Below are positions 1,631 through 29,363 of a stretch of DNA of 29,926 nt, one piece after another. Below the pieces are notes generated by a model, which worked only from the letters and a program-made list of their open reading frames with translations, was not told where the DNA came from and ran no database searches. The first letter of the stretch is position 1. Each line of letters opens with the position of its first letter. This DNA is from a virus (taxonomy: Duplodnaviria; Caudoviricetes), in IMG/VR virus record IMGVR_UViG_3300020045_005788, positions 1 through 29,926 of that record; one strand, 5' to 3'. A program made the position numbers and the translations under genes.

Positions 1631-1683
1631 TATATTAGCCCGCTGTGAAAGCAGCAGGGTTTACTGGTTCGAGGGGGAAATAA

Positions 1684-1977
1684 ATGAGCGACAATCTCTG
1701 TGCAAAATGCGGTAAAGATGTGATAAATCTTTGGCAGACACCCACGCAGATAACGCGCATCATCCTCGTGGATGATCGAGGCGGCATAAAAATGCTGAAA
1801 GGTAAGAACGCTAGACGGGCTCTTATGGCCTACAGAGAATGGGTAAGGTACTCAAGAAACGGTTCATGGGAGAGCATGGACGCCTTGAACGAGTACACCG
1901 AAGCGGTAAATGAGCACATCTGGTATATAGATCAGATTCTTGATTCTTTTAAACCATTAGAAGTATACACCATCTAA
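1684..1977 (+). CDS. Hypothetical protein
   Basis: GAGGGG SD, CxxC near the N-terminus, fits operon spacing. Confidence 0.65.
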   Translation: MSDNLCAKCGKDVINLWQTPTQITRIILVDDRGGIKMLKGKNARRALMAYREWVRYSRNGSWESMDALNEYTEAVNEHIWYIDQILDSFKPLEVYTI

Positions 1978-1995
1978 GACCAGTAGGAGATAAGC

Positions 1996-2859: not shown

Positions 2860-2870
2860 AGGACAGACTA

Positions 2871-3782: not shown

Positions 3783-3985
3783 GTTTGGAAACAACACAGA
3801 ATGACAGGGACATCGCTTTTAACACGTTAAAAGCGCAGGCGGAGCACCACGGGCTAGACCCCGATGATCCAAAGCTTATGGCCTTCCTCTGCCGCCATGC
3901 TGATGACCTTGCAGCGTGGTCTGCCCAAAGCCGTTGGTTGCAGGGCCTTGTGATGGCACAACTTGAAAAGGAGCTGAATGGATGA
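3779..3985 (+). CDS. Hypothetical protein
   Basis: ATGA overlaps at both ends; AGGGGG SD. Confidence 0.7.
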   Translation: MSLETTQNDRDIAFNTLKAQAEHHGLDPDDPKLMAFLCRHADDLAAWSAQSRWLQGLVMAQLEKELNG

Positions 3986-4410
3986 TTGAAGCGATCATCT
4001 TGTCATCACTTCTGTCTCTATCCCCGCACCAAGTGGATGAGCTGGGGTGTATGGTGGAAGCCCTCTACTATGAGGCGCGGAATGACACACAAGAGGGTAT
4101 GTCCGCTGTTGCATCCGTCATCATCAACAGAGTGCAACACCCAAAGTTCCACCACACCATCTGTGGGGTGATACGTGATGAAGGGAGCTTCAGTTATTAT
4201 TCAGATGGTAAGCCAGAGGACTTCCAGTTTGATGGTGTGGTGGACAGGAGGGCGTTTAACGTGGTTGTTGGGGTGGCCCTGACAGCGGTGAATGGAGCTC
4301 TTGTTGACAGGACAGGCGGAAGCTTGTATTATCACACGGTCGACGGGAAGCGGCCTAAGTGGGCATCCTCTAACGGCGTAACAATCGGAAAGCATGTGTT
4401 TTATAAATGA
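3982..4410 (+). CDS. Cell-wall hydrolase, SleB/Hydrolase_2 family
   Basis: CMVEALYYEAR (catalytic Glu), VASVIINRV...F..TIC.VI, FS, T.G.LYYH, IGKHVFY; hydrophobic N-terminus. Confidence 0.88.
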   Translation: MIEAIILSSLLSLSPHQVDELGCMVEALYYEARNDTQEGMSAVASVIINRVQHPKFHHTICGVIRDEGSFSYYSDGKPEDFQFDGVVDRRAFNVVVGVALTAVNGALVDRTGGSLYYHTVDGKRPKWASSNGVTIGKHVFYK

Positions 4411-4422
4411 GAGGGGTGACAA

Positions 4423-4593
4423 ATGACAGATGAGTTGTTTGATATTATCATTGAAACCGCTGTGGGTGAAACCAAGTCAAAGCTGCGCTTTAAAAACGCG
4501 GAGTGCTATGAGCGCTATATCATGGCGAACACCACAATGGCCGAGGAGATGTTCATTAGTGATAGAACCAAGGAAGGAAACATTAAGCACTGA
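4423..4593 (+). CDS. Hypothetical protein, 56 aa (not in ORF track)
   Basis: GAGGGG SD then ATG ACA GAT GAG: MTDELFDIIIETAVGETKSKLRF...IKH*. Better start context than the 4430..4663 frame. Confidence 0.55.
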   Translation: MTDELFDIIIETAVGETKSKLRFKNAECYERYIMANTTMAEEMFISDRTKEGNIKH

Positions 4594-4663
4594 ACGTGTG
4601 AAGTTTATGAGCCACAAACGCAGATGCGCATATCTACTTTTGGACAAAAGACTGGAGAGTTAG

Positions 4664-4894
4664 ATGGAGATACTAAGTATATTAGCACCAAATATGTTCG
4701 AGGCAGTGACACTTGCTTGGCTTATTGGTGTGTTCTACCACACAGAGTTATTCAATTTCACACACTACAATGAGATGAAAACCTATACCAATATACTGCA
4801 CATCTATTTGTGGCCGATTACGAGGGTTTTGTATTACATACATGTTGCATTCTGCAAGGTGCAGGGTTATACTCCTGCTGACTATTTTGAATAG
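4664..4894 (+). CDS. Hypothetical membrane protein
   Basis: GGAGAG SD, hydrophobic segments, LWP motif; followed by a hairpin. Confidence 0.6.
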   Translation: MEILSILAPNMFEAVTLAWLIGVFYHTELFNFTHYNEMKTYTNILHIYLWPITRVLYYIHVAFCKVQGYTPADYFE

Positions 4895-4914
4895 GGGCGA
4901 AAGCCCCTTAATTT
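4893..4914 (+). terminator. Probable intrinsic terminator or hairpin
   Basis: AGGGGC-GAAA-GCCCCT followed by TAATTT (weak U tract). Confidence 0.55.
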
Positions 4915-4927
4915 CGAGGGCGGGAAA

Positions 4928-5266
4928 ATGTATATAACAGAGGATGTCCTGCTAGCCGCAGGCTACCGAAAATTCGGGAAATGGCCGCCAAAAATAGCAG
5001 ACAACTTATTCCAGCGGCGGATCAGCGACGAGAACGGTACGCGATATTACATAGACATCTGGATGTACGACTGGAGTAAGTATCCACACCATATAGGTGA
5101 GTATAAGCAGGCTTTTGAGGCAGAGGCTTATTACAGTGATGGCATATCTGCTATACTGCACCATTGCGAGGAAAGAACACTGGAAAAAGTTGAGGAGTTC
5201 TTTGCTGACCTGTTTATCAAGTTCGGTGCAGGATACTACGAGATGGCTGGAGGGGTAGATGCTTAA
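4928..5266 (+). CDS. Hypothetical phage protein
   Basis: SD present; FQRRI.D..G.RYYID...VEEFF..LF...GAGYYE pattern; overlaps the next ORF. Confidence 0.7.
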   Translation: MYITEDVLLAAGYRKFGKWPPKIADNLFQRRISDENGTRYYIDIWMYDWSKYPHHIGEYKQAFEAEAYYSDGISAILHHCEERTLEKVEEFFADLFIKFGAGYYEMAGGVDA

Positions 5267-5483
5267 GTGGGTGGGTTATGGTGAGCTGAACACGGCGTTG
5301 AACATGCTACAAGAGGTTGGTGATGCGGCTTGGATAAGATCACAAGACACCCGGAGAAGTGAAATTGACAGGGCCAGAGATGAGGCATCCCACTCAGCTT
5401 ATGTTTACTGCCAGCACTTGTTGACTCATCTAGATAAATACCAGAGGTGTGACAATGAACCCGATCATCAAAATGTTGGTTGA
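5259..5483 (+). CDS. Hypothetical protein
   Basis: GGAGGGG SD; overlaps neighbouring ORFs. Confidence 0.6.
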   Translation: MLKWVGYGELNTALNMLQEVGDAAWIRSQDTRRSEIDRARDEASHSAYVYCQHLLTHLDKYQRCDNEPDHQNVG

Positions 5484-12816: not shown

Positions 12817-12984
12817 ATGCAGATTAATCTTTCAACCTTGTCTGACGACGAGATAGACATCCTGTTGTGGTTGGATAAAGCACATAGACAGGTGGTGGAA
12901 GCGCGCAAGGCGCTTGAGGGAGTTTTGAGTGGAAGAAGAAGAGAATATCAGCAAGTCAAAGAGGGGCTTTGCATCACACCCTGA
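12817..12984 (+). CDS. Hypothetical small protein
   Basis: GGGAG SD then ATG 12817 (MQINLSTLSDDEID...); overlaps the TerS-like ORF by 56 bp. Confidence 0.4.
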   Translation: MQINLSTLSDDEIDILLWLDKAHRQVVEARKALEGVLSGRRREYQQVKEGLCITP

Positions 12985-13285
12985 GCTTATCAACCGTGGT
13001 GGCCGCCCCCTTGGAACAAGAAACAAGATTCCTTCTGAGGAAGACTTCCTCGATGCAATCAAAGGGTGCCGTACAGAGGTTATCCAGAAGATAGTTGGCA
13101 TTATGCGCCGTAGCGCAGATGACAAGACACAGCTCAAGGCGGCAGTGAAATTGCTTGATGCAAACTACCAACTGCTTCTCGATGAAGATGAGTTGACACT
13201 CAAGAAGAACAAGAAGAAAGATTCTAATGGTGCTCAGCCAAAAACACAAGTGTGTAAAGTAATTAATCTGCGTGGTGAGCAATGA
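12929..13285 (+). CDS. Putative terminase small subunit
   Basis: GF..HPE.IN..GRP.G.RNK motif, helical core QLKAA.KLL, GAGGGG SD, upstream of terL. Confidence 0.6.
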   Translation: MEEEENISKSKRGFASHPELINRGGRPLGTRNKIPSEEDFLDAIKGCRTEVIQKIVGIMRRSADDKTQLKAAVKLLDANYQLLLDEDELTLKKNKKKDSNGAQPKTQVCKVINLRGEQ

Positions 13286-15518: not shown

Positions 15519-16073
15519 ATGGAACAAATTGCAAGTGCTGGCCTTGGTGCCTTGGCAAACATCGTTATGCAACCCGTGACACACTACGCAGCGTTTGCAT
15601 CCACGCACTATGATGTGGAATGTTATGACAAAGACGGCAACCTGAAATGGGTTGACGGGTTTGATAATCTAGTTGTTAACACTGGTCTAGATGACATCTT
15701 AAATAAGTATTTTAAGGGTAGCTCCTATACTGCTGCGCACTACGTTGGTCTGAAGGGTGCAGGAACTATTGCTGCTGCTGACACTATGGCATCCCATGCC
15801 GGGTGGGCTGAATCAACTGCCTACTCTGAGGGTGCAAGACAAACACTGACTCTTGGGTCTGTCTCAGGCCAAAGTGTCAGCAACTCAGCATCTAAGGCGG
15901 TGTTCAGTATTAATGGCACAGCCACCATCGCAGGTGCATTTCTTGCCACTGACAGTACAAAAGGTGGCACCAGTGGGACGCTGTATGGAGCTGGTGATTT
16001 TTCTGGTTCACGCTCTGTTGAGAGCGGTGATACACTCAATGTTACTGCAACATTGACGCAGGCTGCATCCTAA
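15519..16073 (+). CDS. Fibre-associated structural protein
   Basis: KW.D...NLVVN.G...IL...F; SN.AS.A.F.IN.T.TI.GAFL...K.GT.G.L...F...RSV.SGDTLNVT; AAGGA SD. Confidence 0.7.
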   Translation: MEQIASAGLGALANIVMQPVTHYAAFASTHYDVECYDKDGNLKWVDGFDNLVVNTGLDDILNKYFKGSSYTAAHYVGLKGAGTIAAADTMASHAGWAESTAYSEGARQTLTLGSVSGQSVSNSASKAVFSINGTATIAGAFLATDSTKGGTSGTLYGAGDFSGSRSVESGDTLNVTATLTQAAS

Positions 16074-16085
16074 CAATAAAAAGGA

Positions 16086-16373
16086 ATGCCGATGAAAGTT
16101 TTTAAAAAGACGCCGGATGGCATTCTTGATTATGGGTTGGACTGGGTAAGTTGGCTTGAGGAAGGGGATACTATCGTAGCCTCTGAGTGGGAAGCCGACA
16201 CAGGTGTCACGGTGGACTCTGACGAGTTTACTACAACACTGACCACAGCCTTTATCTCCGGCGGTAGTATACACAAGAGCTACAACATCACAAATACAAT
16301 AACCACTGATGGTGGTAGGACGACATCACGTTCAATACGCATAGATGTCGTTCCTAAAATTTATGAAGAATAA
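16086..16373 (+). CDS. Fibre-tail adaptor-like protein
   Basis: K.P...LDY.LDW..WL..GDTI..SEW...T.AFISGG.....Y.ITN.ITT..GR...RSI.I.V. Confidence 0.7.
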   Translation: MPMKVFKKTPDGILDYGLDWVSWLEEGDTIVASEWEADTGVTVDSDEFTTTLTTAFISGGSIHKSYNITNTITTDGGRTTSRSIRIDVVPKIYEE

Positions 16374-16376
16374 AGG

Positions 16377-16631
16377 CGTTGCACTCAGGCAGGTGGCCAC
16401 TCTCTGAACAGCAATGATAAATGTTATTGCGCGGGTAATAATAACTTCGGTGCTCTGCCATCGGTAAAGTAGTCCACGCGCAATAACCCTTTCCCTTTTG
16501 GTACCACCCTTTTATGGATTACTGCACCGCCACCTCATCTGTGCAGGACAAGAGTGTGGGAGTCCCCCTCCAAGTTCTCCCTCCCACATTCCTCCATGAA
16601 TTTTTAGTTTATAAGTCGTTACGGAGAACTA
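16377..16631 (+). ncRNA. Structured 5' leader of terL
   Basis: Four helices, a 7-nt loop-loop complement, and an 8-nt loop complement to the terL RBS (see findings). Confidence 0.6.
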
Positions 16632-18062
16632 ATGACGGAATTAACATGGCAAGATATTAAGCCGCAGGAAGGTAAGCAAACTCTCGCCTTCCGCCGCATT
16701 GACGAAGTAGATTTCATGGTGTTTGGTGGTGCTCGTGGGGCAGGTAAAACAGACCTCATCACCATGCTGCCACTGAAAGATTTGCATGACGGTTTTAGTA
16801 GATTTATTTATTTTCGAAGGGAATATGCTGAGATAATGGGGTCAAATGGACTCTGGGAGAAGGCTAGTAAATACTTCCCCTATTTTGACGGTAAGCCGCA
16901 TTTATCCGCTGCAAAATGGTCTTTCCCGTCTGGTGCATCTGTACGTTATAGTCACATGTTCCAAGAGTCTGATAAAGAGAGACACAAAGGGCTTGGTTAT
17001 ACAGGTATCTTCTTTGACGAGATTGACCATTTCTCCAAGGATCAGGTACAGTATCTTCTGACGTGTCTGCGTTCAGAGGCTAAACGTTCGAGCTACTGTG
17101 TCGGAACGGTCAACCCAGACCCGGACTCATGGGTTTTACCGTTGATTGAATGGTATCTGGATGAAAGGGGTTTTCCTGACGAAGAGAAGTGTGGAAAAAT
17201 AAGGCATTTCGTTGTCAAGGATGGGGAGTTTATCTTCTCCGACCATGAAGAGTCCTTCATGGAGACACACCCAGATATAGTCAACCCTTTTATACCGGGG
17301 CGCGGTAATGTTTACATCCGGCCAAAGCGGTTTACATTCATAAACGGCAACTGTTTTGACAACCCGATAAACTTAGCCAAAAACCCTACATATTTGTCGG
17401 AGCTGAATAGCCTCCCGGATCACGAACGTGATAGGCAACTTTGGGGGAACTGGTATGCCAGACCTGCTGGAAGTAACTACTTCCAACGAGATTGGCTTGT
17501 ACCCGTTGACAAAATCCCCTTCGGGACGAGGAAGTGCAGAGCTTGGGATAAGGCATCCTCAGAGCCTTCAGATACAGTGCCATCCCCCGACTTCACGGCT
17601 TGCAGCCCTATAGTGCATAAATGCAAGAATGGGTACTTCTACCTTGAGTGGAGTGTCTTAGACAACATCTGTGACGATGTAGGAGCCAAGAACGCTGACC
17701 CTGAGGTAAAGGGGCGCTTTAGAAAGCGCGCTGGCGAGCGTGACAGGATGATACTTCAGCAGTCCATTGCTGACGGTGTTGACTGTAAGATAGTTATTGC
17801 GATTGATCCGGGATCGAATGGTAAGGATGCTTTTGAGTCAATGGCCAAAAGTTTTGTATCGGAAGGGTTCCAAGTGGTGTCTGACCCGATGCCATCTACG
17901 AAAAGCAAGATGATACGTTTTGAGCCTTTTGCAACAGCAGCTCAGAATGGTTTAGTTAGGGTATTAAAAAGTTCATTCCCGAATGAGAAGACATACAACG
18001 CCTTTATGAAGGAGTTGGAAGCCTTTAACGGGGAGAGATCAACGTCAACAAGAAAAGACGAT
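16632..18062 (+). CDS. terL: Terminase large subunit, exon 1
   Basis: PQEGKQ, Walker A GGARGAGKT, Walker B IFFDE, TVNPD, RAWDKA, D.TA, K..RFEP, EL..F....RKDD, then broken by the intron. Confidence 0.93.
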
Positions 18063-18397
18063 TAACGCAAAAGCAAAGTTGTCTATAAACCTCTTTAATT
18101 GCTGGAAACCCTGCCGTATATACGCCAGACAATCAGCAGCGAAGCCCGATAAGGGAACGTTCAACGACCATCGAAATCACGGGAAACCGGAAGAGAGTAG
18201 AGTAGGGGTTAAGTAACCCCGAAAAGGGAGGCTCTGGATACAGAGAAGATATGGTCTAATCTGCATGGTGACATGCAGCTTCAATTTAAACAAGTGTCCA
18301 TAAATCCAACGGTGCAAAAACCGGCTTGGGGAAATACAAGAGGACACTCCTCAAATTGAAGGGCAATGATTAACGATCTTTGTCTAATAGAAAAATG
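18063..18397 (+). mobile_element. Group I self-splicing intron (IA2-like), no homing endonuclease ORF
   Basis: P1 GACGAU/GUUGUC with U-G at the splice site; P AATTGCTGGAAA, Q AATCAGCAG, R GTTCAACGACCA, S AAGATATGGTC; P8 and P9 hairpins; terminal G18397; P10 GCAAA/UUUGC. Confidence 0.93.
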
Positions 18398-18532
18398 TTT
18401 GCAGACGCAACAGCATCCGCTTTTAACTTTATAAATAAATCCCGCAACATTGACATTGTTGTGCGTAACCAGACAACTACACAAACTCTATCGTCTAGTG
18501 TCTTACATGAGATGAATTTCACGATAGATTAG
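18398..18532 (+). CDS. terL: Terminase large subunit, exon 2 (44 aa)
   Basis: FADATASAFNFINKSRNIDIVVRNQ...TID*. Splicing restores RKDD-FADA...AFN; spliced product 521 aa. Confidence 0.9.
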   Translation, partial: FADATASAFNFINKSRNIDIVVRNQTTTQTLSSSVLHEMNFTID

Positions 18533-18558
18533 CAAAGCCTTAGAGGGGCCAAGAGAGA

Positions 18559-18879
18559 ATGGAAAAGAAGATAATCACCGAGCGCAGACGCGATCCACAC
18601 GGTGTGGCGTCATTCTTCAAGCGGATTCAAGAATCCTTGGATGATGGCTGGCGGTTTGTTGATGCAACAAAATGGAGCGAGATGCCGTCGTTGTTTCCTG
18701 TCCTGACAGTGTGGATGTGTAAAGGTGAAGCCCCCGCGGTTGAGCCTGTACAGGATGCCGAAGAGCAAATGGAAAATGTCGTCGATGACGTTGCTGACGA
18801 AACTGTCGCCAGCCAGCCAGAAGAAAAGCAGAACCGGCCCGGAAGAAAGCCCTCAAAAGTTGGCCAATATAAAAAATAA
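18559..18879 (+). CDS. Hypothetical protein with acidic and low-complexity C-terminus
   Basis: ORF between terL and portal with a purine-rich SD. Confidence 0.7.
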   Translation: MEKKIITERRRDPHGVASFFKRIQESLDDGWRFVDATKWSEMPSLFPVLTVWMCKGEAPAVEPVQDAEEQMENVVDDVADETVASQPEEKQNRPGRKPSKVGQYKK

Positions 18880-18893
18880 TCTTGGAGCGATAG

Positions 18894-20468
18894 ATGCCAG
18901 ATAAGAATGTTAGAAAGGCTGAGACATCTGGCAGGGTTATCGTTCCCACCAGCAGGGAAACAGGTCAACCTCTTGCCATTACAAGCTCTTATTTTATACA
19001 AGAGGCAAAGAAGACGGAGCTTCGGATGCCAGCAAGGTTAACAACCTTTGACGTAATGAGCGAGGACGATGCGGTATTCAACTCGATTGATTATACCAAC
19101 CTCCATGTTGCAAACGCCCTCTGGAAGGGAAAGGTTGTTCCTAAGAGAACGCAGACGAGCAAGATAGCGGCTGAATTCCTTAATTACTGCCTTCACAACA
19201 TGTCCAGTGGCACATGGTATGAGGCTGTAAACAGTGCATGCGCCGACTTGAAATATGGTTTCTCCCTGCAGAATTTCATCATCGAGAAAAGAAATAGGGG
19301 TCAGTATCCCGGCAGCTATGTCTTGAAGAAGTTGTCCCCCCGAAACCAGCATACTGTTGCTGGATGGGTATGGGATGATAATTTCAGAGATGTCATCGGT
19401 TTTGTGCAGAAGCCTATGACGCGACAGGTTACAAACCACCTGTGGGTGGATGACGGCCTGACGAGGCTCACAGCTGCAAGGTGGCAGGAAACCGGCTACA
19501 ACCTTTTGTGGAATAACCAATACCTCCACTATCGGCATAATCCGTCAGATGGAAACCCGCAAGGTGATCCACCCCTCTTGCATTGCTACAATGCTTGGAA
19601 GGAAAAGAGGCTCATTGAGAAATATGAGCTTGTGGGCGTTAGCAAGGATTTAGGTGGCTCAATCGTTCTTAGGGTGCCATCGGAGCTTATCCGCCAAGCC
19701 AATGACCCCGCCAACTACCCCGCAGCCGCAGCGGAGTATGCAGCCTTGCAAGCCAATGCAGCAGCTCTACACGCTGGCGAGAGCGTCCTTATTGTTCTCA
19801 CATCTGACACGGATGACGTGAGTAATAAGTACCTTTACGACTTCGATCTTAAGGGTATTGATGGTGGAGGTAAGCAGTATAACACTTCGGACATTATTGA
19901 CCAGAAAAGAAAAAGCATTTACAACGTATTCGGTACAGGTTTCTTGCTGCTTGGTCAAAGCACTGTTGGATCATATAACCTCAGCTCATCTGGAACATCC
20001 ACTCACGGATTTTACGTTGAGAGGTGCATTAACCAGAAAGTTGATGTGATCAATACGCAGCTCATCCCGCGCCTTCTGGCGGCTAATGACATCCGCCTTG
20101 ATTGGAAGGACATGCCTGAGTTTATCCCATCTGAAACGGGAGAGATTGATTTTGACATCTGGGGCAAATTTATCCAGCGTTCTAAATCGGTTAATGCTCT
20201 GACGAAGGAAGCCCTTGAGTATATCTACGAGAAGGCTGGCCTTCCTTTAGACGGGCTTGATGAGATTGACTTCTCTGACAAAGGTCAGAGTAGGGCTGGT
20301 GAGAGCATGGGCACATCTGGAACGGGTAGCTCACAGCAGGGTTATGATGCCTCCACAGCGAACAACGAGAACGCTGCCACTAAGTCACTTGTCGTTGACA
20401 AAGTGACGGATGATGAGGTGGTGCTGATTGACACTAACACAGGGAATCCCTTGCATATTCCGCGATAG
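18894..20468 (+). CDS. Portal protein
   Basis: 524 aa, after terL; D..V, A.FL.YCL, YGFS, NP.G.PPL..CY.AWKEK, IN.QLIP.L...N. Confidence 0.85.
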   Translation: MPDKNVRKAETSGRVIVPTSRETGQPLAITSSYFIQEAKKTELRMPARLTTFDVMSEDDAVFNSIDYTNLHVANALWKGKVVPKRTQTSKIAAEFLNYCLHNMSSGTWYEAVNSACADLKYGFSLQNFIIEKRNRGQYPGSYVLKKLSPRNQHTVAGWVWDDNFRDVIGFVQKPMTRQVTNHLWVDDGLTRLTAARWQETGYNLLWNNQYLHYRHNPSDGNPQGDPPLLHCYNAWKEKRLIEKYELVGVSKDLGGSIVLRVPSELIRQANDPANYPAAAAEYAALQANAAALHAGESVLIVLTSDTDDVSNKYLYDFDLKGIDGGGKQYNTSDIIDQKRKSIYNVFGTGFLLLGQSTVGSYNLSSSGTSTHGFYVERCINQKVDVINTQLIPRLLAANDIRLDWKDMPEFIPSETGEIDFDIWGKFIQRSKSVNALTKEALEYIYEKAGLPLDGLDEIDFSDKGQSRAGESMGTSGTGSSQQGYDASTANNENAATKSLVVDKVTDDEVVLIDTNTGNPLHIPR

Positions 20469-20486
20469 GGTAGGGAATGAAAATAG

Positions 20487-21224
20487 ATGACAAGCAATAA
20501 AATAGAGAAGGCTCTATATAATGATAAACATGCAGCTTTAAGCCGCGCATGTGGATCAAAATTTAATAAAAGTGAGAACGGTGAATACTACTGGGTGACG
20601 GACTTTGATGATGAGTATGTCTACATCTGCGAGTCTGGTGAGGTCTATCGTTGTACGTACACATACTACGCTAGCGGTGATGTAACACTCGGCGACGAGA
20701 TGGTTCATGTTAACAGACAAACAGAGTACGTCGTATCTTCTGTTCAAGAAGATGAAGACGAGATGATGGAAAAGTCTGTTGAAAGCGCCATGATCAAATT
20801 CTTCAAGAAGCATTTTGGTGGAAGCACAAGAGGTGACGTCCTCCCCACTATCAAGGCGCTCAACGAAGAAGAAATGATCGCTGTTGAGCCGATGTATGTC
20901 CCGCCTGAAACGCCCGATGGTGTTGGCGAGGGGATGAAGGAAGAGCACATCCGCAAGATGGTTGACAGTGCTAATAGGGCCATTTCCGATGGCCGGATGA
21001 AGGCAAATCTATTCCACAAGAAAACCACTGACAAGTTCTCCTTTTTGCGTGCATGGGTAAATGAGTGTGATTGCATAATTGGTGAGTCCTTAGTTAAGAA
21101 GGGGCAGCCTATCGTGGAAGTGCAATTCAATGACAAAGCCCTCTGGGAAGCACGTAAGAGTGGAAAAATCATGGGACTCTCAATCGGAGCAAAATGTAAG
21201 TCCAAGAGGAAGGTAGATGGCTAA
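20487..21224 (+). CDS. Prohead protease, XkdF-like
   Basis: E.MY.P...D..GE, N.FH, LWE..KSG...GLSIG; follows portal. Confidence 0.8.
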   Translation: MTSNKIEKALYNDKHAALSRACGSKFNKSENGEYYWVTDFDDEYVYICESGEVYRCTYTYYASGDVTLGDEMVHVNRQTEYVVSSVQEDEDEMMEKSVESAMIKFFKKHFGGSTRGDVLPTIKALNEEEMIAVEPMYVPPETPDGVGEGMKEEHIRKMVDSANRAISDGRMKANLFHKKTTDKFSFLRAWVNECDCIIGESLVKKGQPIVEVQFNDKALWEARKSGKIMGLSIGAKCKSKRKVDG

Positions 21225-21876
21225 TTTAAATAAGATCAACAATAAAGTTGGCGTATATCTCGAAGATGTACATTTTGACTTTGAAGGCGAAGAAGGTAAT
21301 GACTCAAGTTACCCGCACATTGCTTATACATCAGGTGATGGTGCATGCAGCTTGATGAACGAAGCATTCTTACTGAAATCCAAAGAGGGTTTTAGCGAAG
21401 AAGAGGCTAAGCTCTTGGCTGAGCTTGGTATTGAACCCTCTGGTGATTCTTCCCGCTGTACCAAGGGAAGGGCAGGGGAAGAACTAGAAGAAACTAAAAT
21501 GGAGAAAGACAGCGACATGTCTCCCGAGCAAGAGCAACTGATGAGATCTCTCAAAGAAGAGAACGAAGCCCTCCGCAAGCAATTGCAGACAGGCGAAATT
21601 AAAGAGCAAGTGGCTAAATTTGGTGTGGTCTCCGACAAGGAAGAGGCACTGATCCGGGCACTGGTTGAAATTAACACTGAGCAGAAATGCGCCATCATTG
21701 CCGTGATGGAAGACCTGTTGTCATCTAAGGAAGAGGCTATCAAGAAGGCACTTCCTACAGAAGAGAATCTGCTCGCAAAGCAGCTTGAGAATGAAGTTGG
21801 CGATGCAGGGGCACCAGTTAAAAAGTCATTTGCTGAGCAAGTGGCCCAATCCCGTGAAGCTCAGAAAAAGCAATAA
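21217..21876 (+). CDS. Putative capsid scaffolding protein
   Basis: Acidic coiled-coil C-half; position between protease and decoration/capsid genes. Confidence 0.6.
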   Translation: MANLNKINNKVGVYLEDVHFDFEGEEGNDSSYPHIAYTSGDGACSLMNEAFLLKSKEGFSEEEAKLLAELGIEPSGDSSRCTKGRAGEELEETKMEKDSDMSPEQEQLMRSLKEENEALRKQLQTGEIKEQVAKFGVVSDKEEALIRALVEINTEQKCAIIAVMEDLLSSKEEAIKKALPTEENLLAKQLENEVGDAGAPVKKSFAEQVAQSREAQKKQ

Positions 21877-21894
21877 CTAAGGAGTTAAATAATA

Positions 21895-22557
21895 ATGACA
21901 CTGAATGCAACTGGCCGCAAGCACGTTTCCGAACTTGTCAAAGGCTATACCAAATTTGAATCTGGCCAAGGTGTAAACTACTGTTTCGCCACCGTCAACT
22001 GCGAAGGCTCAGGCGATGTAGAGCCTATCGGCACACTGGTGAAGTGGTCAAACACTGATTCGGCTTTTAAACCTATTACTGTAAACCCTGACTGGGCTGC
22101 CTCAACCGCCTATGCAGCGGGTGCTGTAGTCAAACCTGCCACACAGAATGGCCTTGAGTACGTCTGTATCACCGCTGGCACCAGTAACAACACCGAGGGT
22201 GAGCCGACCTTCCCGACTGTTCCCGGCGCAACTGTAACGGAGACTGACGGCGTTGTGTGGATGGCCCGCGAGCCGTACGGCAATGATGTAACCAGCCCAC
22301 TGCCGAACCACGCCTCAATCTGCATCACTGTCGGTTCTAAAGAGGGCTTTGGCTTTAATAAGGACGATGTCACCCTTTCTGGCACTTCAGTCAAAATGAC
22401 TGTGCTCTACCGTGGTGAAGCAAGCATTGTTACGGAAGGTGTTGAGTGGGGCGCTATCGCCGCAGCCGACAAATCGGAGATTTCTGCTCGTCTTGAGAAG
22501 CAAGGCATCCGCGTAGAAACTTCAGCCACTGCTGTCGTTCCGTCACATATCGCTTAA
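21895..22557 (+). CDS. Head decoration protein with an inserted WxAxTxYxxG module
   Basis: Immediately before the capsid gene; IGTLV and VLYRG.A.I core with an insert at about 22093-22260. Confidence 0.7.
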   Translation: MTLNATGRKHVSELVKGYTKFESGQGVNYCFATVNCEGSGDVEPIGTLVKWSNTDSAFKPITVNPDWAASTAYAAGAVVKPATQNGLEYVCITAGTSNNTEGEPTFPTVPGATVTETDGVVWMAREPYGNDVTSPLPNHASICITVGSKEGFGFNKDDVTLSGTSVKMTVLYRGEASIVTEGVEWGAIAAADKSEISARLEKQGIRVETSATAVVPSHIA

Positions 22558-22576
22558 TAACGGAGAATAATAAATA

Positions 22577-23662
22577 ATGAAAATCACAGCTAGTGAAATT
22601 AGCTACGACGTTAGCAAGGCTCTCGGTGCGTCACAAGCAAACGCATTCCAGATGGAGGACATCACTCCAGCCCTTACGCGCAGCTATGTAAAACCCGGCC
22701 TGCTGACTGCCCTGCTGGCCCCTCAGCAAGAGCTCCTGCTGACCGACACATTCAAGTTTGATCGTACCGATTCCACTGTGGCGCTGCCTGACGGTAAGTC
22801 CTATATGGCACTCGGCAATGACATTGCAAAGGATCGTCCGAAGCAGTATCTGTACTCGGTTCCTTCTTTCGGTATCAAGTTTAATGTGGCCCCCGGCGAC
22901 TATGCCAACCGTCGTAAGCCAGGCACCAATGAGCTGATGCAAGAAGCTGATGTCGTAGCAGCTATGACTGTCAAGGCTGACGATGCTTGGGCACTGTTTG
23001 AAGAGCTGGCCATTGCTCAGTTGGTCACTGCTGATACTAACATTGTACGTGGTGGCCCGTTCACCGTTTACAACTTCCACACTGAACTGGAAGGTGGTGC
23101 TCGTGCAGCAGCTACCGACATGAATCTGGATGGGGCCAATATTGACTTCTACCAAACCTTCCGCGAGCAACGCCGCTTGCTGACTCAAACACTGCAACGT
23201 GCTGGTGACAGCGCTAGTCAGATCGTTTGTGTCTGTGGTGATACGTTCTTCGATCTGCGTTACGCAGTGGAGCAGAAGTCTGGCCTGGCACGTGAAATCA
23301 AGTTTGGTCTTGATCTGGCTTCACAGCCAATCAGTGAATCATCTTTTGGTGCAGGCACGTATAACTATGCCTACTTCGACTCAATGGATGGTATTCGCTA
23401 CATCAACTACGGCTCAGAGATCATTGCTGGCCAGAAGTTGATTGGCGATGCAGATGCCTACCTGATCCCGCTGGGCGCACGCAACCTGATTCGCTCAGTG
23501 TATGCCCCTGCCCAAACCCGCGAGTATGTGAACACTCAAGCCATGAAGCGTTATGCTTGGTCTATGGTGGACAACCGTCAAGGTGTCACCGTTATCCAAG
23601 AGAGTAACTTCCTGCCTGCTCTGCTCACCCCGGCTGCAATTCGCCACTTGACCACCACCTGA
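22577..23662 (+). CDS. Major capsid protein (lambda gpE-like family)
   Basis: 361 aa, strong SD, biased codons, VCVCG..FFD, YAP, ESNFLP...P C-terminus; followed by a terminator. Confidence 0.85.
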   Translation: MKITASEISYDVSKALGASQANAFQMEDITPALTRSYVKPGLLTALLAPQQELLLTDTFKFDRTDSTVALPDGKSYMALGNDIAKDRPKQYLYSVPSFGIKFNVAPGDYANRRKPGTNELMQEADVVAAMTVKADDAWALFEELAIAQLVTADTNIVRGGPFTVYNFHTELEGGARAAATDMNLDGANIDFYQTFREQRRLLTQTLQRAGDSASQIVCVCGDTFFDLRYAVEQKSGLAREIKFGLDLASQPISESSFGAGTYNYAYFDSMDGIRYINYGSEIIAGQKLIGDADAYLIPLGARNLIRSVYAPAQTREYVNTQAMKRYAWSMVDNRQGVTVIQESNFLPALLTPAAIRHLTTT

Positions 23663-23707
23663 GCCTAGGGCGTGTAATGCGCCCTCTTAGTGTGATTTAG
23701 ACAAAAG

Positions 23708-23735
23708 GGGGCTTGTGTTAGCAAGCCCCTTATTT
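23708..23735 (+). terminator. Terminator after the capsid gene
   Basis: GGGGCTTG-TGTTAG-CAAGCCCC-TTATTT; a second hairpin lies at about 23667-23685. Confidence 0.7.
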
Positions 23736-23746
23736 CAGGAGAAATA

Positions 23747-24172
23747 ATGGCCACAATTGATAGAGAACAATTGGTAGCGGATGCTAATTTCTGGCTTCCT
23801 CCTGCGAACACTCTCACAGATACAGACATCCTCACCGTAGGTGAGTTAGTCATCACACAAGTTGGTGATGATAGCGGCAAATACGCCGAAGTTTTGTGCA
23901 AGACATTAAAGGCTTGTGCAGTAAAGAATTTAACAATCGCTGTTACGTCTGCTGGCGCTAAGAAACGTCAGAGAATTGGTGACAACGAGACAGAATATTT
24001 TAATGGGTCAATTAAAGCAAGCTGGCAAGACTATATAGAGTCCCTTGCTGATATTTGCCCCTTGTTTGGCTACATGCCTTCAGTAGCTATCGGGATGTAT
24101 ATTAACCCCGGGGATGCCATAGACGTATTTGAAGGCGCATTTGAAGACACAGACGAAGACGCATACCTATAA
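23747..24172 (+). CDS. Head-tail adaptor (probable)
   Basis: Position after the capsid gene; K..RIGD.E.EY and W..YI..L..ICP motifs. Confidence 0.6.
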   Translation: MATIDREQLVADANFWLPPANTLTDTDILTVGELVITQVGDDSGKYAEVLCKTLKACAVKNLTIAVTSAGAKKRQRIGDNETEYFNGSIKASWQDYIESLADICPLFGYMPSVAIGMYINPGDAIDVFEGAFEDTDEDAYL

Positions 24173-24181
24173 GGAATAAAA

Positions 24182-24430
24182 ATGGCCGTACAACATTGGG
24201 CGCTGACACATCCAGCCTATAAATATGTGCTAGTTGTACCAGATGACGATAATGACTTGCCGGATGGTGCATGTAAGGCATTACTTGTTACCACAGCAGG
24301 AACAGCGAATTTAATGGATATTTACGGAACCACTGTTAACGGTGTTCCAGTCTTTGCAGGGTACAACCCGCTACAGTGTTTGCGCGTACTTACTGGCGGA
24401 ACAGCAACCGGTATTTTTGCTCTCTATTAA
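24182..24430 (+). CDS. Head spike base protein (RcGTA Rcc01079-like)
   Basis: V.P.D..DL.....AL.V..AG........G..V....AG..PLQ..RV..TGGTATGI.ALY. Confidence 0.75.
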   Translation: MAVQHWALTHPAYKYVLVVPDDDNDLPDGACKALLVTTAGTANLMDIYGTTVNGVPVFAGYNPLQCLRVLTGGTATGIFALY

Positions 24431-24440
24431 GAGGTGGTGA

Positions 24441-24599
24441 ATGGCTGCAAATATGTCAGGTATTGGCATCGGGCTTGGTATTGACATGACAACATTCTTC
24501 ATCTCCCAAGATGACCTTATTATCCCTTGGCTGCTTGACGGCGGTGTCTGGAATGATGACGGCATCTGGGTTGATTCTGAGACTTGGCAGGACTCCTAA
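24441..24599 (+). CDS. 52-aa spike-linker-like peptide (not in ORF track)
   Basis: GAGGTGG SD; MAANMSGIGIGLGIDM...WLLDGGVWNDDGIWVDSETWQDS*; TAATG coupling to the next gene. Confidence 0.7.
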   Translation: MAANMSGIGIGLGIDMTTFFISQDDLIIPWLLDGGVWNDDGIWVDSETWQDS

Positions 24600-25852
24600 T
24601 GGCACAACAAACAATAAACAACGGTGATTCAGGCTTATCGGCTCGCAACAAGCTAAATGCCAATTACACAGAGCTTTACGCTGGCATCCTCAGCAACGCC
24701 GTGATTGTAAAAAGTGAAGCTGACTTACCAGCCCTTGACGGCGGCGTACACCCTCTTGTAGATGGAACCACCTACATCATTGACGGCAATGTCACAATTG
24801 CCAACCCGGTGACATTGACCAGTTCCAGCATATCATTTTCTTCAAACGGTACACTGTCCAATTCCCTATCCTATTCAGGGCTTGGAACAATGTTTACAGG
24901 GGTGGACTCAAACCTGTTCATCTCAGGGATGGGCCTTAATGCGCCTAACGGGACGATGTTTAATATGTCATCCCCCGGAGGGGCTAAGACTAAGATTCTT
25001 GCAATACAGGACTTCTTGATCAACGATGTGAAAGTGCTTGGCACTGTACAAGACATGCTGACAATTGGCTTGCTCCGTGGACAGTTTACCAGCATCACAC
25101 AGAACGGGCTTTCCTTCGTTGGTTCCTTCCAACAGTTCGTTTCTGACACCATCAGTAATGACAATAACGTTGGAACATTCCTTAATCTTGGAACAGCAAC
25201 ATTTGACTTCTTTGATTTAGATAATTACAACTTCACCCACGGTGCATCTGGACTCTCCTCCGTGTTTCTTTCTGGGGCAGTCAACTCAGCTAACATTGTG
25301 CAGGGTGGGGCGGGAAAGATTTCAGATGGTGTCCTTAGTGGCCCCGGAACAGATCGTGTAGGTATTACAAGCGAAGACTTGCATTGGTCATTCCAGAATA
25401 ATACGCGCATGCAAGACACCCTTGCAGATGCAATGGCGGCCTTCTCGGGTAATGCACTGGTTACGACTATTGTAACACAGAGCGTAGCAGTCCCTGTTAA
25501 TGCTGTATGGACAGACGTTCGATCCTCTGGCTTCACTGTGTCATCTGACGGAGAGATCATCTATCTTGGGGATCGCCCTGTTGTCCACCCTATTGACATC
25601 AACCTGAGTGTTGAGTCTGTATCTGGAACCAACAAGGTTATCGCTATCTACTTAGCAATGGACACCGGCTCTGGCTATTCAGTCATCGCCGAATCAAAAA
25701 GAACTAACAAAGTGAGTGCATCTGATCCGAGGAACACGTCAGTTATCTGGCAGACGCTAATCAACCAAGGTGACAAGATCAAGGCTTACATTGCCAACAC
25801 CACAGATGCTGTTGATCTGGTAGTCCTTGACGGTGGAATACGCATCCGGTAG
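24599..25852 (+). CDS. Fibre/spike protein
   Basis: Start moved to ATG 24599. N-terminal I.NGD.G...R.KLN.N..ELY motif, beta-helix-like middle, beta-sandwich-like C-terminus. Confidence 0.7.
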   Translation: MAQQTINNGDSGLSARNKLNANYTELYAGILSNAVIVKSEADLPALDGGVHPLVDGTTYIIDGNVTIANPVTLTSSSISFSSNGTLSNSLSYSGLGTMFTGVDSNLFISGMGLNAPNGTMFNMSSPGGAKTKILAIQDFLINDVKVLGTVQDMLTIGLLRGQFTSITQNGLSFVGSFQQFVSDTISNDNNVGTFLNLGTATFDFFDLDNYNFTHGASGLSSVFLSGAVNSANIVQGGAGKISDGVLSGPGTDRVGITSEDLHWSFQNNTRMQDTLADAMAAFSGNALVTTIVTQSVAVPVNAVWTDVRSSGFTVSSDGEIIYLGDRPVVHPIDINLSVESVSGTNKVIAIYLAMDTGSGYSVIAESKRTNKVSASDPRNTSVIWQTLINQGDKIKAYIANTTDAVDLVVLDGGIRIR

Positions 25853-25945
25853 GAATAAATAAAATGACAGTCTACTGTGAAGTAAAAGACAAGAACGGTG
25901 TCATTACTTTCAGTGGGTTTCTTGAACCATCCACTTGGAAGAAAG

Positions 25946-26461
25946 ATGACAAAAAGTACAAAAACAAAAGTGGTAAGAACAGGAAACTCACTGAAGCAAC
26001 TCGGGGAGAGGTTCAGCAACCTGACAAGGTTGAGTGTTGAGGTAGGACACTTCCTTGAACAAGGGAACCACTCAGAGGCAGACCACCTGACGCTGGTGGA
26101 CTTGATGCGGATGCACTCAACGGGGTATGAAACTGGTGGAGTGTCTGTTCCTCCGAGGCCCATCCTTGCAATCTTCCTCGCCTCAATAAAGAACAAACTC
26201 CCACCCCCTGCCAATGCAGCTATTGATAGCTTTCTGAAGACCACTGTGTCGCAGGGTGATGTATTGGAACTCTTGAACACCGTTGGTGCTGCACTAAGGG
26301 CAAAAGAGAAATCAATCTTTGGTCATTCTCCACCTCTCACTAGCAACAGTAAGAATGTGATCAAGCACAAGGGGAATAGGAACACGCCAATGGTTGACTC
26401 TGGAGAGCTTAAAGAGAGAACAGCCTATAAAACATCCATTGATAAGAAGGTGAGGGAGTGA
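25946..26461 (+). CDS. Neck/tail-completion protein
   Basis: V.VG, H..G, VPPRP.L, PL..NS...I..KG..TP.VDSGEL; start moved to ATG 25946. Confidence 0.7.
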   Translation: MTKSTKTKVVRTGNSLKQLGERFSNLTRLSVEVGHFLEQGNHSEADHLTLVDLMRMHSTGYETGGVSVPPRPILAIFLASIKNKLPPPANAAIDSFLKTTVSQGDVLELLNTVGAALRAKEKSIFGHSPPLTSNSKNVIKHKGNRNTPMVDSGELKERTAYKTSIDKKVRE

Positions 26462-26462
26462 A

Positions 26463-26819
26463 GTGAATGACCTGTTAAGCACACACACCCTGACGTTCAC
26501 CAGAAAGGCCGCTGCTGCCCTTGGGGATGATGGCCGACTCACTGATGGGACTACATCCTCTTTTTGCGCTACGGGATCTCTACAGCCTCTCAAGGGCATC
26601 CAGCAGAATATCCTCCCACAAGGGAAGACATCCGCAGATGCAAGACGCTTCTACACAAAGACGGAAGTGAAGACAGCCGACCAGTTCAATCGCACACCGG
26701 CTGATGAAACCGTCATAGGGGGGAGAACATACGAAGTGTTCACCGTTGAGGATTGGTCTGGCTACGGAACAGACGAGGATCACTACAAGTGTATCCTTCT
26801 CAGGAAGGACATGACGTAA
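26463..26819 (+). CDS. Head-closure (stopper)-like protein
   Basis: GSLQP, LP.G, YT, AD...I.G..YEV..V.DW, HYK.IL. Confidence 0.7.
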   Translation: MNDLLSTHTLTFTRKAAAALGDDGRLTDGTTSSFCATGSLQPLKGIQQNILPQGKTSADARRFYTKTEVKTADQFNRTPADETVIGGRTYEVFTVEDWSGYGTDEDHYKCILLRKDMT

Positions 26820-27403
26820 TGATTGACTTTGATACATTGAAATCGGTGCTTGTCCAGATAGCAAGGGAACCAACCTATTCACCTGCCCTCTCCACTGTCA
26901 GTGGTAAGGCGGCGGTATACCAAATAAGACCAAACTCTATCCAGTTGCCATACCCGTTTATTGTGCTGGATGTACTAAGTGTTGAACAAGAGGCCGGATG
27001 GCTCTGGAATGATGGATATGATGAAGATAACAAACCGTACTATGAGACACACTATCTTGTGCTTTGTTCTTATCGCGCATATGGAACTGGTGCTGTTTCT
27101 ATCGCGAATCAGTTAGAAGGTTGGTTCAGGAGAGAGCAAGTATTAAACAGGCTTGAGGATGATGCTGGCGCTGTTGTTATTGAGACAGGGACGCTAACCA
27201 ACCTTCCTGTTCTTGTCGAAGACAAGTTTATCGAGTCTGCCAGCTTCACCATAACACTTGGAGTTACAGATCGGCATGTTGATACCTCTGCTGGTGAGCT
27301 TATCGAAGTCGTTGATACGACGGGTTCAGAACTCTATAGAGAAACGGGCGATGAAGACCCGCTGCCGGTTGACGAAACAATTACACTAGTACCGCCAAAC
27401 TAA
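26819..27403 (+). CDS. Tail terminator / neck protein
   Basis: Start at ATG 26819 (TAATG coupling); P.YPFI.L motif; precedes the sheath. Confidence 0.65.
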   Translation: MIDFDTLKSVLVQIAREPTYSPALSTVSGKAAVYQIRPNSIQLPYPFIVLDVLSVEQEAGWLWNDGYDEDNKPYYETHYLVLCSYRAYGTGAVSIANQLEGWFRREQVLNRLEDDAGAVVIETGTLTNLPVLVEDKFIESASFTITLGVTDRHVDTSAGELIEVVDTTGSELYRETGDEDPLPVDETITLVPPN

Positions 27404-27431
27404 TAATTACAAACCAAGGAGAACCACATAG

Positions 27432-28781
27432 ATGGCCCTGCAAGACATTGCACAAGTAAACATTACACTTGAGACATCCGCCGTAACATCAGTAGGCTTC
27501 AGCACTCCGCTGTTCATCTCAAGTCATCGTTATTTCACCGAGCGTGTACGCTCATACACCAGCCTCGTGGAGTTGGCAGAAGACTTTCCCACCACTTCCA
27601 ACGCCTACATTGCCTCACAAGGCCTGTTGGCTCAATCTGGTGCTCCTGCCCAATTCAAAATTGGCCGCCGTGAAGTGGACTCCATTGAGTTTGCTCTTGA
27701 TGGCGATCCCAATGTTGCAGGCACAGTCTATGCCATCACTGTAACGGATTCAAGTGGTACAGCCACTGTCACCGTCACCACGGATGTCACCACTAACACA
27801 GCCGCTGAAGTTGTTACAGCCCTGAAGGCTGGATTGTCAGCCCTGACGGATGTCGCGGATTCAGGCACCACCACACTGATCCTAACCAAGGGCACTGATG
27901 AGTTCACCATCTCTGGCGTTACTGGCCTGACGGGAACCAACACTGTCACTGAGACTGCCGCTGACTGCATGACAGCAATTCAAGCTGTTGATGACGACTT
28001 TTACTACATTGGTGCAGATGACCACACGCAAGCGTTTATTCTTGCACTGGCCGCTGATGTTGAAGCTAAAAACAAGATTTACTTCTTTAGTGTTGACGAA
28101 GCTGATGGAATCACTGCCCTGACGGAACCCGCTGCTAACGGCGACACACTCGGTAAAGTGGCTGAGCTGGATTACTTCCGCACTGTAGGTTTGTTCCACC
28201 ATGATGCAGACACCCTGTTCCCAGAGATGCGGTATATCGGGGTTGGTGCTGGTAAACAGCCCGGAACAATGACATGGGCCAACCAGAAGGTAGCTGGGCT
28301 TGATGTATCTCAAGACCCATCCACTGGCCTGAACTTGTCTACCACACAAAAGAATAATCTGAGTGATCGTAACGCATCGCTTGTGGTTTCTCTTGGCGGT
28401 ATCACTGCATTCCGTGATGGCAAGGTAGCATCTGGAGAGTGGATCGACGTTATCTCGAGTCGTGACCTGTTGATTGCAAGAATCACTGAGGGCTACGAAA
28501 ACAAGATACTGAACAGTGAGAAGATCACCTATGACGACAACGGCATCCGCGAAATGCAGAATGTTCTTGAATCTGTCCTGAGTCGGTATGTCTCCACGGC
28601 TTCTTCACCCAATATCCTGCAAGCTGAGAACCCGTTCACTGTCACAGTGCCCCGTTCAAAGGATGTGTCTTTTGCCACAAAGCAATCAAGGATACTGAAT
28701 CTTGCATTCGAGGCATACTTGGCTGGTTCCATCCACATCGCTGTAGTGAGTGGAACACTCACGTATGACGCCACGGCATAA
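27432..28781 (+). CDS. Tail sheath protein (DUF3383-like)
   Basis: F.TPLF, R.R.Y.S, PG..TWA, G..ASGEWID, KI.YDD.GI, LAG.IH...V.G. Confidence 0.85.
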   Translation: MALQDIAQVNITLETSAVTSVGFSTPLFISSHRYFTERVRSYTSLVELAEDFPTTSNAYIASQGLLAQSGAPAQFKIGRREVDSIEFALDGDPNVAGTVYAITVTDSSGTATVTVTTDVTTNTAAEVVTALKAGLSALTDVADSGTTTLILTKGTDEFTISGVTGLTGTNTVTETAADCMTAIQAVDDDFYYIGADDHTQAFILALAADVEAKNKIYFFSVDEADGITALTEPAANGDTLGKVAELDYFRTVGLFHHDADTLFPEMRYIGVGAGKQPGTMTWANQKVAGLDVSQDPSTGLNLSTTQKNNLSDRNASLVVSLGGITAFRDGKVASGEWIDVISSRDLLIARITEGYENKILNSEKITYDDNGIREMQNVLESVLSRYVSTASSPNILQAENPFTVTVPRSKDVSFATKQSRILNLAFEAYLAGSIHIAVVSGTLTYDATA

Positions 28782-28795
28782 GGAGATAATAAATA

Positions 28796-29299
28796 ATGTC
28801 ACTGCCTGTTTTTTCTTCACGCAACATCAAAGTAAACTGGCTTGGAAAGAAGCTCGGTGGACTGGCCCCTGATAGCTCGGTGGTTATCACCCCGTCATCA
28901 CCCACTACCGAGACGGAAGTAGGAGCTGATGGTGAGATTAGCATCTCTCTGCTGCCCGACTTCACTGGAACGGTGACCCTGAGCTTCCAATACAACTCGC
29001 CGTCAAACCACTACTTGAGTGCCGTCTATAATGCGCAGCGCGCAAGCGGAACACTCTACCGTGGTGATCTTGGTATCCATGACCCATCTGGTGGTGTTGC
29101 AGCCGTTCTGCGGCGTGCCCACATTCAGTCACGTCCCGAAGTGACCATCGGTTCTTCTGCTGCTGGTCAAACGCAAAACTGGACATTCTTCTGTGAAGAT
29201 ATGTTGTATATGTCTACACTGGATGGGTTTGATATTCCTGCCAACATCCTTGCCGACATCGGCTCGTTTAAAGACGCCATAGAAGCGTTTAAGTTGTAA
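28796..29299 (+). CDS. Tail tube protein
   Basis: Follows the sheath; GLAPDS, VGADG, GTVT..Q.SPSN.YL, W.F. Confidence 0.8.
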   Translation: MSLPVFSSRNIKVNWLGKKLGGLAPDSSVVITPSSPTTETEVGADGEISISLLPDFTGTVTLSFQYNSPSNHYLSAVYNAQRASGTLYRGDLGIHDPSGGVAAVLRRAHIQSRPEVTIGSSAAGQTQNWTFFCEDMLYMSTLDGFDIPANILADIGSFKDAIEAFKL

Positions 29300-29306
29300 A
29301 TCCTCT

Positions 29307-29327
29307 GGGGCGTACCAACGCCCCTTT
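29307..29327 (+). terminator. Probable terminator after the tube gene
   Basis: GGGGCGT-ACCA-ACGCCCC-TTT. Confidence 0.6.
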
Positions 29328-29363
29328 CCCCTTCCCAAGATTATAACGGAGAACTTATAATTT

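Follow-up and report, generated by a model that had tools for sequence, protein, structure and literature searches.

A structured RNA upstream of a myovirus large terminase gene: a probable uncatalogued mRNA leader limiting terminase translation rather than a packaging RNA of the phi29 type

CU-rich loops complementary to the Shine-Dalgarno (SD) sequence are a feature of the mycobacterial 6C RNA and of RsaE and RNAIII, which are free-standing genes acting in trans, and loop L13 of cobalamin riboswitches can carry the ribosome-binding site (RBS). In the L5-L13 kissing interaction of these riboswitches, as described in the available parts of PMC9600662, base pairing links a loop of the upstream folded domain to one in the expression platform. 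For the T4 genes e, soc, 49, and I-TevI, the accessible sections of PMC3014915 describe leaders in the form of simple stem-loops, whose effect is lifted by a late promoter located within them. At the packaging motor itself, the pRNA of phage phi29 serves the gp16 ATPase on the prohead, and its molecules associate through 2 to 4 bp (PMC2241910 and PMC5340915, from the portions available). Finally, the accessible text of PMC10690425 reports 14 candidate structured RNAs (csRNAs) upstream of the large terminase gene psiM2_ORF9 with a proposed role in cis.

The RNA considered here lies in a window of 29,926 nt, i.e., the whole stretch of DNA that we analyzed (IMG/VR record IMGVR_UViG_3300020045_005788). 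This 29.9-kb virus record carries genes for an RNA ligase, a polynucleotide kinase, and a ribonucleotide reductase, followed by those for terminase, portal, capsid, and sheath. Its closest GenBank relatives are Pseudoalteromonas phage H101 (49% identity in TerL), Aeromonas 2L372X-like phages, and rV5-like phages, and the top TerL match in protein searches (P0002) is 63% identical. A spacer of 258 nt separates terL from a gene of the Gp77 family (Table 1). Further upstream lies the likely terS, whose product has tblastn matches upstream of terL in five relatives, a shared GRP.G motif, and Atlas look-alikes, among them a cluster in which 47% of the members carry DUF5681; Pfam and PHROG searches with this product gave no match. 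Between 11922 and 12328, divergent strong sigma70-like promoters with identical hexamers (11/12) are arranged around an AT-rich spacer, and the one on the + strand may drive the terS-terL operon. In a 303-aa open reading frame starting at 2871, a 9-nt word occurs five times within 3270-3494, which suggests a repeat in the encoded protein.

Near its end, terL is interrupted by a group I intron that is compact and contains no endonuclease ORF; its splice sites were placed by reading the P1/P10 pairings by eye. The apparent terL stop codon at 18063 consists of the first three intron bases, and exon 2 aligns with residues 476-493 of P0002, picking up immediately where exon 1 leaves off. The region 18280-18560, comprising the 3' domain of the intron and exon 2, was left blank by ORF calling and would pass for intergenic. 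Group I introns are also present in the terL loci L007, L014, L016, L040, L086, and L092.

Table 1. Features of the spacer upstream of terL and of the neighboring genes. Structures are predicted; z values and fractions refer to comparisons with shuffled sequences.
Feature	Position	Strand	Remarks
Likely small terminase subunit gene (terS)	12929..13285	+	label inferred from context
Gp77 fibre-tail-adaptor family gene	16086..16373	+	PF23148, E 3.9e-24
Unit 1, three-way junction with arms A and B	16372..16492	+	z -2.36, 3/150 shuffles
Hairpin A, 13-nt loop 16390-16402	16377..16416	+	P 0.63-0.99 by context
Kiss 1, 5' strand AGGUGGC	16391..16397	+	complement of 16529-35; duplex -13.5 kcal/mol
Palindrome GTGGCCAC in loop A, possible homodimer site	16393..16400	.	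8 nt
Arm B, perfect 11-bp helix, internal loop, and tip hairpin 16447-16464	16423..16487	+	
Alternative 9-bp pairing 16468-76/16515-23	16468..16523	+	sequence complement only
Pyrimidine-rich linker between units	16493..16510	+	palindrome TGGTACCA at 16499-16506
Unit 2, three-way junction with arms C and D	16511..16600	+	z -3.61, 0/150 shuffles
Hairpin C with a loop of 13 nt; 3' strand of kiss 1, GCCACCU 16529-35	16522..16546	+	P 0.63-0.99
Hairpin D, 11-bp stem and CU-rich anti-SD loop of 18 nt (16563-80)	16552..16591	+	P 1.0
Hairpin E, 7-bp stem burying AUG 16632-34, SD GGAGA 16623-27 in loop	16615..16636	+	
terL exon 1	16632..18062	+	phrog_979, E 4e-153; PF03237, PF17289 (Terminase_6N/6C)
Group I intron in terL	18063..18397	+	RF00028, 72.5 bits at 17993-18278
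terL exon 2, 44 codons	18398..18532	+	weak alignment, E 0.011

On the + strand, the spacer is predicted to fold into two junctions and a last hairpin that together span 16372-16636. A first-pass annotation of the window had described part of this structure, i.e., hairpin A (16377-16416), the stem of hairpin C (16522-27/16541-46), a perfect 11-bp helix between them (16423-33/16477-87), and the sequence AGGTGGC in loop A facing its exact complement GCCACCT in loop C. Our analysis confirmed the helices and the 7-nt complement exactly as described; in hairpin A, CGTTGC 16377-82 pairs with GCAATG 16411-16, and TCAGG 16385-89 with TCTGA 16403-07. The proposed bounds of 16377 to 16546 are too short, since their 3' limit cuts the C-D junction in half, and hairpins D and E as well as the loop-loop pair on the RBS were missing from that description.

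Unit 2 is closed by an 8-bp helix (16511-18/16593-600), and its minus strand reaches a z of only -0.29. In unit 1, arm B is well supported (z -3.43, 0 of 200 shuffles; P 0.96-1.0), hairpin A alone is no more stable than shuffled sequences (z -0.72), and the closing helix 16372-76/16488-92 is weak (P 0.06-0.67 by context). Over longer segments, z is -0.51 for the 186-nt region and -1.5 for the 273-nt spacer. The alternative 9-bp pairing of Table 1, to which the folding method used could assign no pseudoknot score, would cross helix B and compete with the closing helix of unit 2.

The + strand of the spacer folds better than the - strand, and G-U pairs occur in six of the nine predicted helices. 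Both features favor a + strand RNA over the far-fetched reading that the spacer acts as DNA, with its two 8-bp palindromes (16393 and 16499) and two 11-bp inverted repeats forming a packaging-initiation or protein-binding site by terL. The Rfam scan that the first-pass annotation had proposed gave no match on the spacer, either at gathering thresholds or at E<=10 and including the pRNA model, and ARAGORN gave none either, i.e., no known riboswitch, ribozyme, tRNA, or tmRNA was recognized. Together with the better folding of the + strand, this blank upholds the earlier suggestion of a structured, undescribed RNA. After comparison with the consensus by eye, we also dropped a minus-strand T-box, SAM-II, the HDV-like, pistol, twister, and hammerhead ribozymes, and a piece of a group I intron.

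The last eight nucleotides of loop D (16573-80) are the exact complement of 16623-30, the RBS of terL (P=0.0017 by loop permutation). Hairpin E, which is itself more stable than most shuffled versions (z -2.29, 6 of 150 shuffles), would bury the AUG in its stem and show the SD in its loop, with predicted unpaired probabilities of ~0.02 for the AUG and ~0.98 for the SD. Since loop D is an exact 8-nt complement of the SD shown by hairpin E, a D-E kiss would cover the SD and block 30S loading. Loop D would be presented for this purpose by the three-way junction made of the closing helix, hairpin C, and hairpin D, and the A-C kiss would fold the upstream A-B unit onto arm C and thereby steady or tune this junction. 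The first-pass annotation had also offered a regulatory role in cis, and this suggestion gains support because the 3' part of the RNA is predicted to pair with the terL RBS and to bury the AUG. The complementarities, the fold statistics, and the recurrence of the layout in relatives are observations; that the spacer is transcribed, that either kiss forms, that repression results, and that the A-C pair has a role is our inference. Reads of run X1 give no coverage of the spacer. Altogether, we give a probability of about one half to the reading that 16372-16636 is a cis-acting mRNA leader braking TerL translation in which A-C serves as an intramolecular brace.

This arrangement has partial counterparts among the systems introduced above. 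Like the leaders of T4 e, soc, 49, and I-TevI, for which the available sections of PMC3014915 predict reduced translation, the predicted fold places the SD and/or AUG of a late gene in intramolecular structure, as is characteristic of RBS sequestration. Unlike these simple stem-loops, it would hold the AUG in a stem and cover the SD through a loop-loop contact provided by a three-way junction, and sigma70-like promoters inside the spacer do not rise above background. The pairing of an upstream-domain loop with a loop at the translation start resembles the L5-L13 kiss of the cobalamin riboswitches as far as the accessible parts of PMC9600662 describe it, whereas the spacer has no Rfam riboswitch match. 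In genomic position and proposed cis role, the leader matches the csRNAs of PMC10690425, for which the available text gives no mechanism, unlike the anti-SD proposal made here. The window leader may overlap one of these 14 csRNAs; motifs of the window and of the leaders in L004 and L001 are absent from three of the six text supplements of that study. In literature that mostly comprised journals outside subscription, we found no description of such a leader.

Pairing with an RBS could also happen in trans, i.e., the spacer or a processed piece of it might be a small RNA whose CU-rich loops D and C and linker pair with RBSs of other phage genes, e.g., turning down the RNA-ligase/kinase cluster once late transcription starts. 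Loop D indeed matches at least 8 nt at four of the 45 genes in the window, i.e., at terL and at ORFs 1684 and 5259 (8 nt each) and 29364 (9 nt), with P=0.0007 by loop permutation, a significance that is overstated because this control destroys the anti-SD word. By energy, terL is outside the ten best RBS partners of loop D in the window. Loop D has a higher affinity for the RBSs of the left cluster than for those of late genes (p=0.007), and loop C matches the RBS region near 24441 over 7 nt. In the relative G008, the corresponding loop has matches of at least 7 nt at 4/27 of its own genes, compared to 1/183, 3/203, and 1/117 in other relatives and 2/42 in the window, and the loop of G003 has a far-off 11-nt match. 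However, the left-cluster bias is also displayed by four of five foreign loops (p 0.002-0.025; 0.10 for L093), and it therefore reflects G-rich RBSs rather than tuning and gives no sign of targeting in trans. In contrast to the free-standing 6C, RsaE, and RNAIII genes, moreover, loop D lies only ~45 nt from its cognate RBS with no terminator between them or elsewhere in the spacer. The single promoter-like site of the spacer, a 9/12 match to sigma70 at 16414-42, lies at the background rate for such sites (5 found versus 5.9 expected). We regard a small RNA acting in trans as unlikely. Across the window, left-cluster genes (144-5483) mostly have G-run RBSs and structural genes (15519-29870) those of the GGAGAA/GGAAT types, and one half of loop D is complementary to each type.

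The leader reading includes the A-C pair, for which chance has to be weighed separately. At least seven Watson-Crick pairs between loops A and C are rarely obtained when each loop is permuted (P=0.001), and the same holds for any pair among the four pooled hairpin loops (P=0.0011). In dinucleotide shuffles of the spacer, a hairpin-hairpin match of at least 7 nt never arose (0/500) and a perfect 11-bp helix arose in 4/500, whereas some perfect complement of at least 7 bp was present in 373/500; the significance of A-C thus hinges on A and C truly being loops. Their predicted persistence depends on where the RNA begins: with a 5' end at 16360, both hairpins are retained in 98% of sampled folds, and with one at 16374, A and C are opened in 57-62% of them and their complementary segments pair over the same 7 bp in a plain helix. 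Among 594 window tiles of 235 nt on both strands, of which none contained A plus all of C, three had a loop-loop match of at least 7 nt, i.e., the D-E pair and two chance matches on the minus strand elsewhere.

It is conceivable that only C, D, and E matter, that the A-C complement arose by chance or as a side effect of one loop resembling an SD and the other an anti-SD, and that A-B is a separate stem for stabilization or RNase processing after the gp77-family gene. The marginal stability of hairpin A and the frequency of 7-bp complements in shuffles fit this explanation, as does the resemblance of loop C to the 16S anti-SD. Furthermore, loop-loop matches of at least 6 nt, and thus anything like the A-C kiss, are absent from all 13 relatives' leaders compared. 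Against it stand the P of ~0.001 obtained with the composition of each loop kept and the geometry of the two loops, which are both 13 nt long with the pairing segment in a shared 1+7+5 register; the first-arm loop of relatives' junctions measures 3-7 nt, compared to the 13 nt of loop C. On balance, we consider a function limited to C, D, and E unlikely.

The first-pass annotation had likened the A-C pair to the loops through which phi29 pRNA oligomerizes and had speculated about a multimerizing RNA, and this part of its interpretation found no support, unlike the uncatalogued + strand RNA and the cis role. With phi29 pRNA as described in the available portions of the literature, the RNA has in common a size of ~170 nt, three-way-junction content, two complementary loops, and a link to packaging. 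It differs from pRNA in its 7-bp match, in loops located on separate junctions, and in a spacer co-oriented with terL; in the predicted fold, the complementary loops do not sit within one junction domain as the CE- and D-loops of pRNA do in those accounts. The phage is a TerL-type myovirus with a Terminase_6N/6C motor and a likely TerS, as opposed to the gp16 motor of phi29, and its spacer lacks an Rfam match. As natural pRNAs share little sequence according to the accessible text of PMC5340915, the missing Rfam match is weak evidence. Conserved presence in relatives, as would be expected of a pRNA, was not found either: no homolog emerged, and the nearest terL loci compared at the DNA level encode TerL proteins ~56-59% identical.

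A multimer could form through intermolecular A-C pairing into a pRNA-like ring or through A-A pairing into a dimer like that of the retroviral DIS, with a role in head assembly or packaging. The spacer adjoins terL, and the predicted A-A duplex (-19.1 kcal/mol) is more stable than A-C. Moreover, an identical palindromic loop sits on different stems in L001 and L071, and its hexamer recurs in a loop of L015. Yet the palindrome in loop A is not significant (chance P=0.058), and palindromic loops overall number 4/33 where 1.9 would be expected. The location of A and C in separate junctions, the type of motor, the lack of an independent promoter or terminator in the spacer, and relatives that package without such a leader all argue against a multimer as well. 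With A and C in two predicted junctions joined by an 18-nt linker, intramolecular pairing looks easy, and we consider a multimerizing RNA very improbable.

We searched for homologs of the RNA in a sample of 243 terL loci and 4 terS loci and beyond. No spacer homolog was found by blastn (447 loci), by nhmmer (478 loci), or by R1, a covariance model built from the window RNA as its one sequence, on 99 of the terL loci, 95 loci from a pattern scan, 10 complete records, and 2 of the terS loci; the A-B-C part had no homolog in the loci searched. In blastn searches of GenBank phages, two 23-nt matches to the window RNA were chance, the L004 element had no match, and the H101 element matched H101 only. 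Neither TerL nor the major capsid protein, each used singly against viral contigs, yielded a relative, and TerS yielded none among GenBank phages. Exact-pattern scans of viral contigs gave 95 and 109 matches that were judged chance by structure and model screens; among the 95, both stems were present in two, neither of which had helix B in addition, and none scored with R1, and a further pattern scan returned only six loci, all already in the sample. Weak R1 matches in L089 (inside an ORF after terL) and in L475/476 (E 0.04, on the minus strand and covering part of the model only) were rejected.

While the sequence of the RNA appears to stand alone among these loci, the layout of unit 2 recurs. 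A closing helix, a hairpin, a short linker, and a CU-loop hairpin with an RBS 37-67 nt downstream are predicted before terL or the adjacent gene in L004/5, L006, L008/9/39, L164, L032, L087, L093, L001 (H101), and L071, with looser versions in L016, L018, and L475, and Rfam assigned no family to the relatives' leaders. A descriptor of this layout, whose sole match on the + strand of the window is 16511-16600, gave five motif matches in four of 61 near loci (not dereplicated), all in sense orientation upstream of terL and none antisense or coding. Among 182 far loci, its matches were two sense upstream, two antisense, and four coding; it missed five leaders recognized by eye. The layout is not universal, and loci L048-50 have both upstream genes and no leader (L049 inspected), while several others have no gap before terL.

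In 10 leaders that were hand-picked by eye and include several kin, the loops fit their own RBSs better than those of the other leaders (p=8.5e-5 by energy, 0.001 by match length). For this test, the duplicates L005, L009, and L039 were left out, L015, L016, L071, and L143 were not included, and the start in L001 was set 17 nt before the annotated one. In four six-leader subsets with kin removed, 1-5 of 720 permutations were as good by energy and 12-39 of 720 by length, and L475, found after the test, has a 7-nt loop-RBS match. Within individual genomes, terL is the best partner of the loop among 27 genes in G008, and the next gene in H101 ties for the longest loop match among 183; the loops of G003 and G009 pair best with genes located far away.

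A covariance model of seven relatives' leaders (R2) scores unit 2 of the window at no better than E 4.3 and misses L001 and L071, so that the likeness of the window RNA to these leaders is one of layout only, i.e., of an analog for which homology is not demonstrated; the A4 profile had no window match, and the junction failed to appear when the mixed alignment A6 was folded with RNAalifold. Among the relatives, 7 of 24 predicted pairs in the four sequences of the L004 group have changes on both sides. In alignment A7, this is true of 12 of 18 pairs (1/500 shuffles); A7 was fitted to the model, includes six weak or chance rows, and, being without the window, gives the latter no support.

Several of these leaders have features of their own. 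In L004 (372-520), L008 (2626-2780), L164 (3816-3990), and L006 (1-140), a conserved terS-terL RNA of ~150 nt without Rfam match has tetraloop hairpins, an anti-SD loop on a junction, and, in its three full copies, an invariant 5' word, and the U before the RBS GGAG that pairs with this loop is kept in all four. The leaders L001 1572-1668 (H101) and L071 1690-1795 precede the gene adjoining terL, an annotated endonuclease in H101; they have an anti-SD arm in common, their palindromic loop is 7 nt long, and loop A of the window contains a related palindromic hexamer. A minimal junction of 70 nt with compensatory changes in both arms, by eye, directly follows terS in L032 (1694-1763) and L087 (2731-2800). 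In L475 (5343-6063), ~700 nt of mostly non-coding, folded sequence without Rfam match lie between terS and an endonuclease-like ORF (by eye) and end in a four-way junction with an anti-SD strand. L143 carries a GOLLD RNA (494-909, 195 bits) by a tRNA cluster upstream of a related terL.

The A-C and D-RBS kisses could moreover be real and the RNA also dimerize through the palindrome in loop A. In such a tandem two-junction switch, loop A would change from an intramolecular to an intermolecular kiss in response to the concentration of the RNA or to a protein, e.g., TerS. We consider this switch quite unlikely; if true, it would link the level of late transcripts to the supply of packaging motors in a TerL-type phage.

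Taken together, the likely role of the spacer is that of an uncatalogued leader in the terL mRNA through which translation of the terminase is held down, and not that of a phi29-type packaging RNA. If the RNA does dimerize, this would bear on the use of RNA by TerL-type motors, though nothing points there strongly. The terS-terL spacer in this group of myoviruses holds a recurrent, uncatalogued junction with a loop that fits the RBS of the next gene, and the version in the window, with a further loop-loop pair upstream, is the most elaborate among those compared. Should both kisses form, this natural phage leader would bring two tertiary contacts to bear on a single translation start. The junction provides a direct way to test how the levels of TerL or of the adjacent homing endonuclease are set in such phages, and the same layout is present in a cultured relative, Pseudoalteromonas phage H101.
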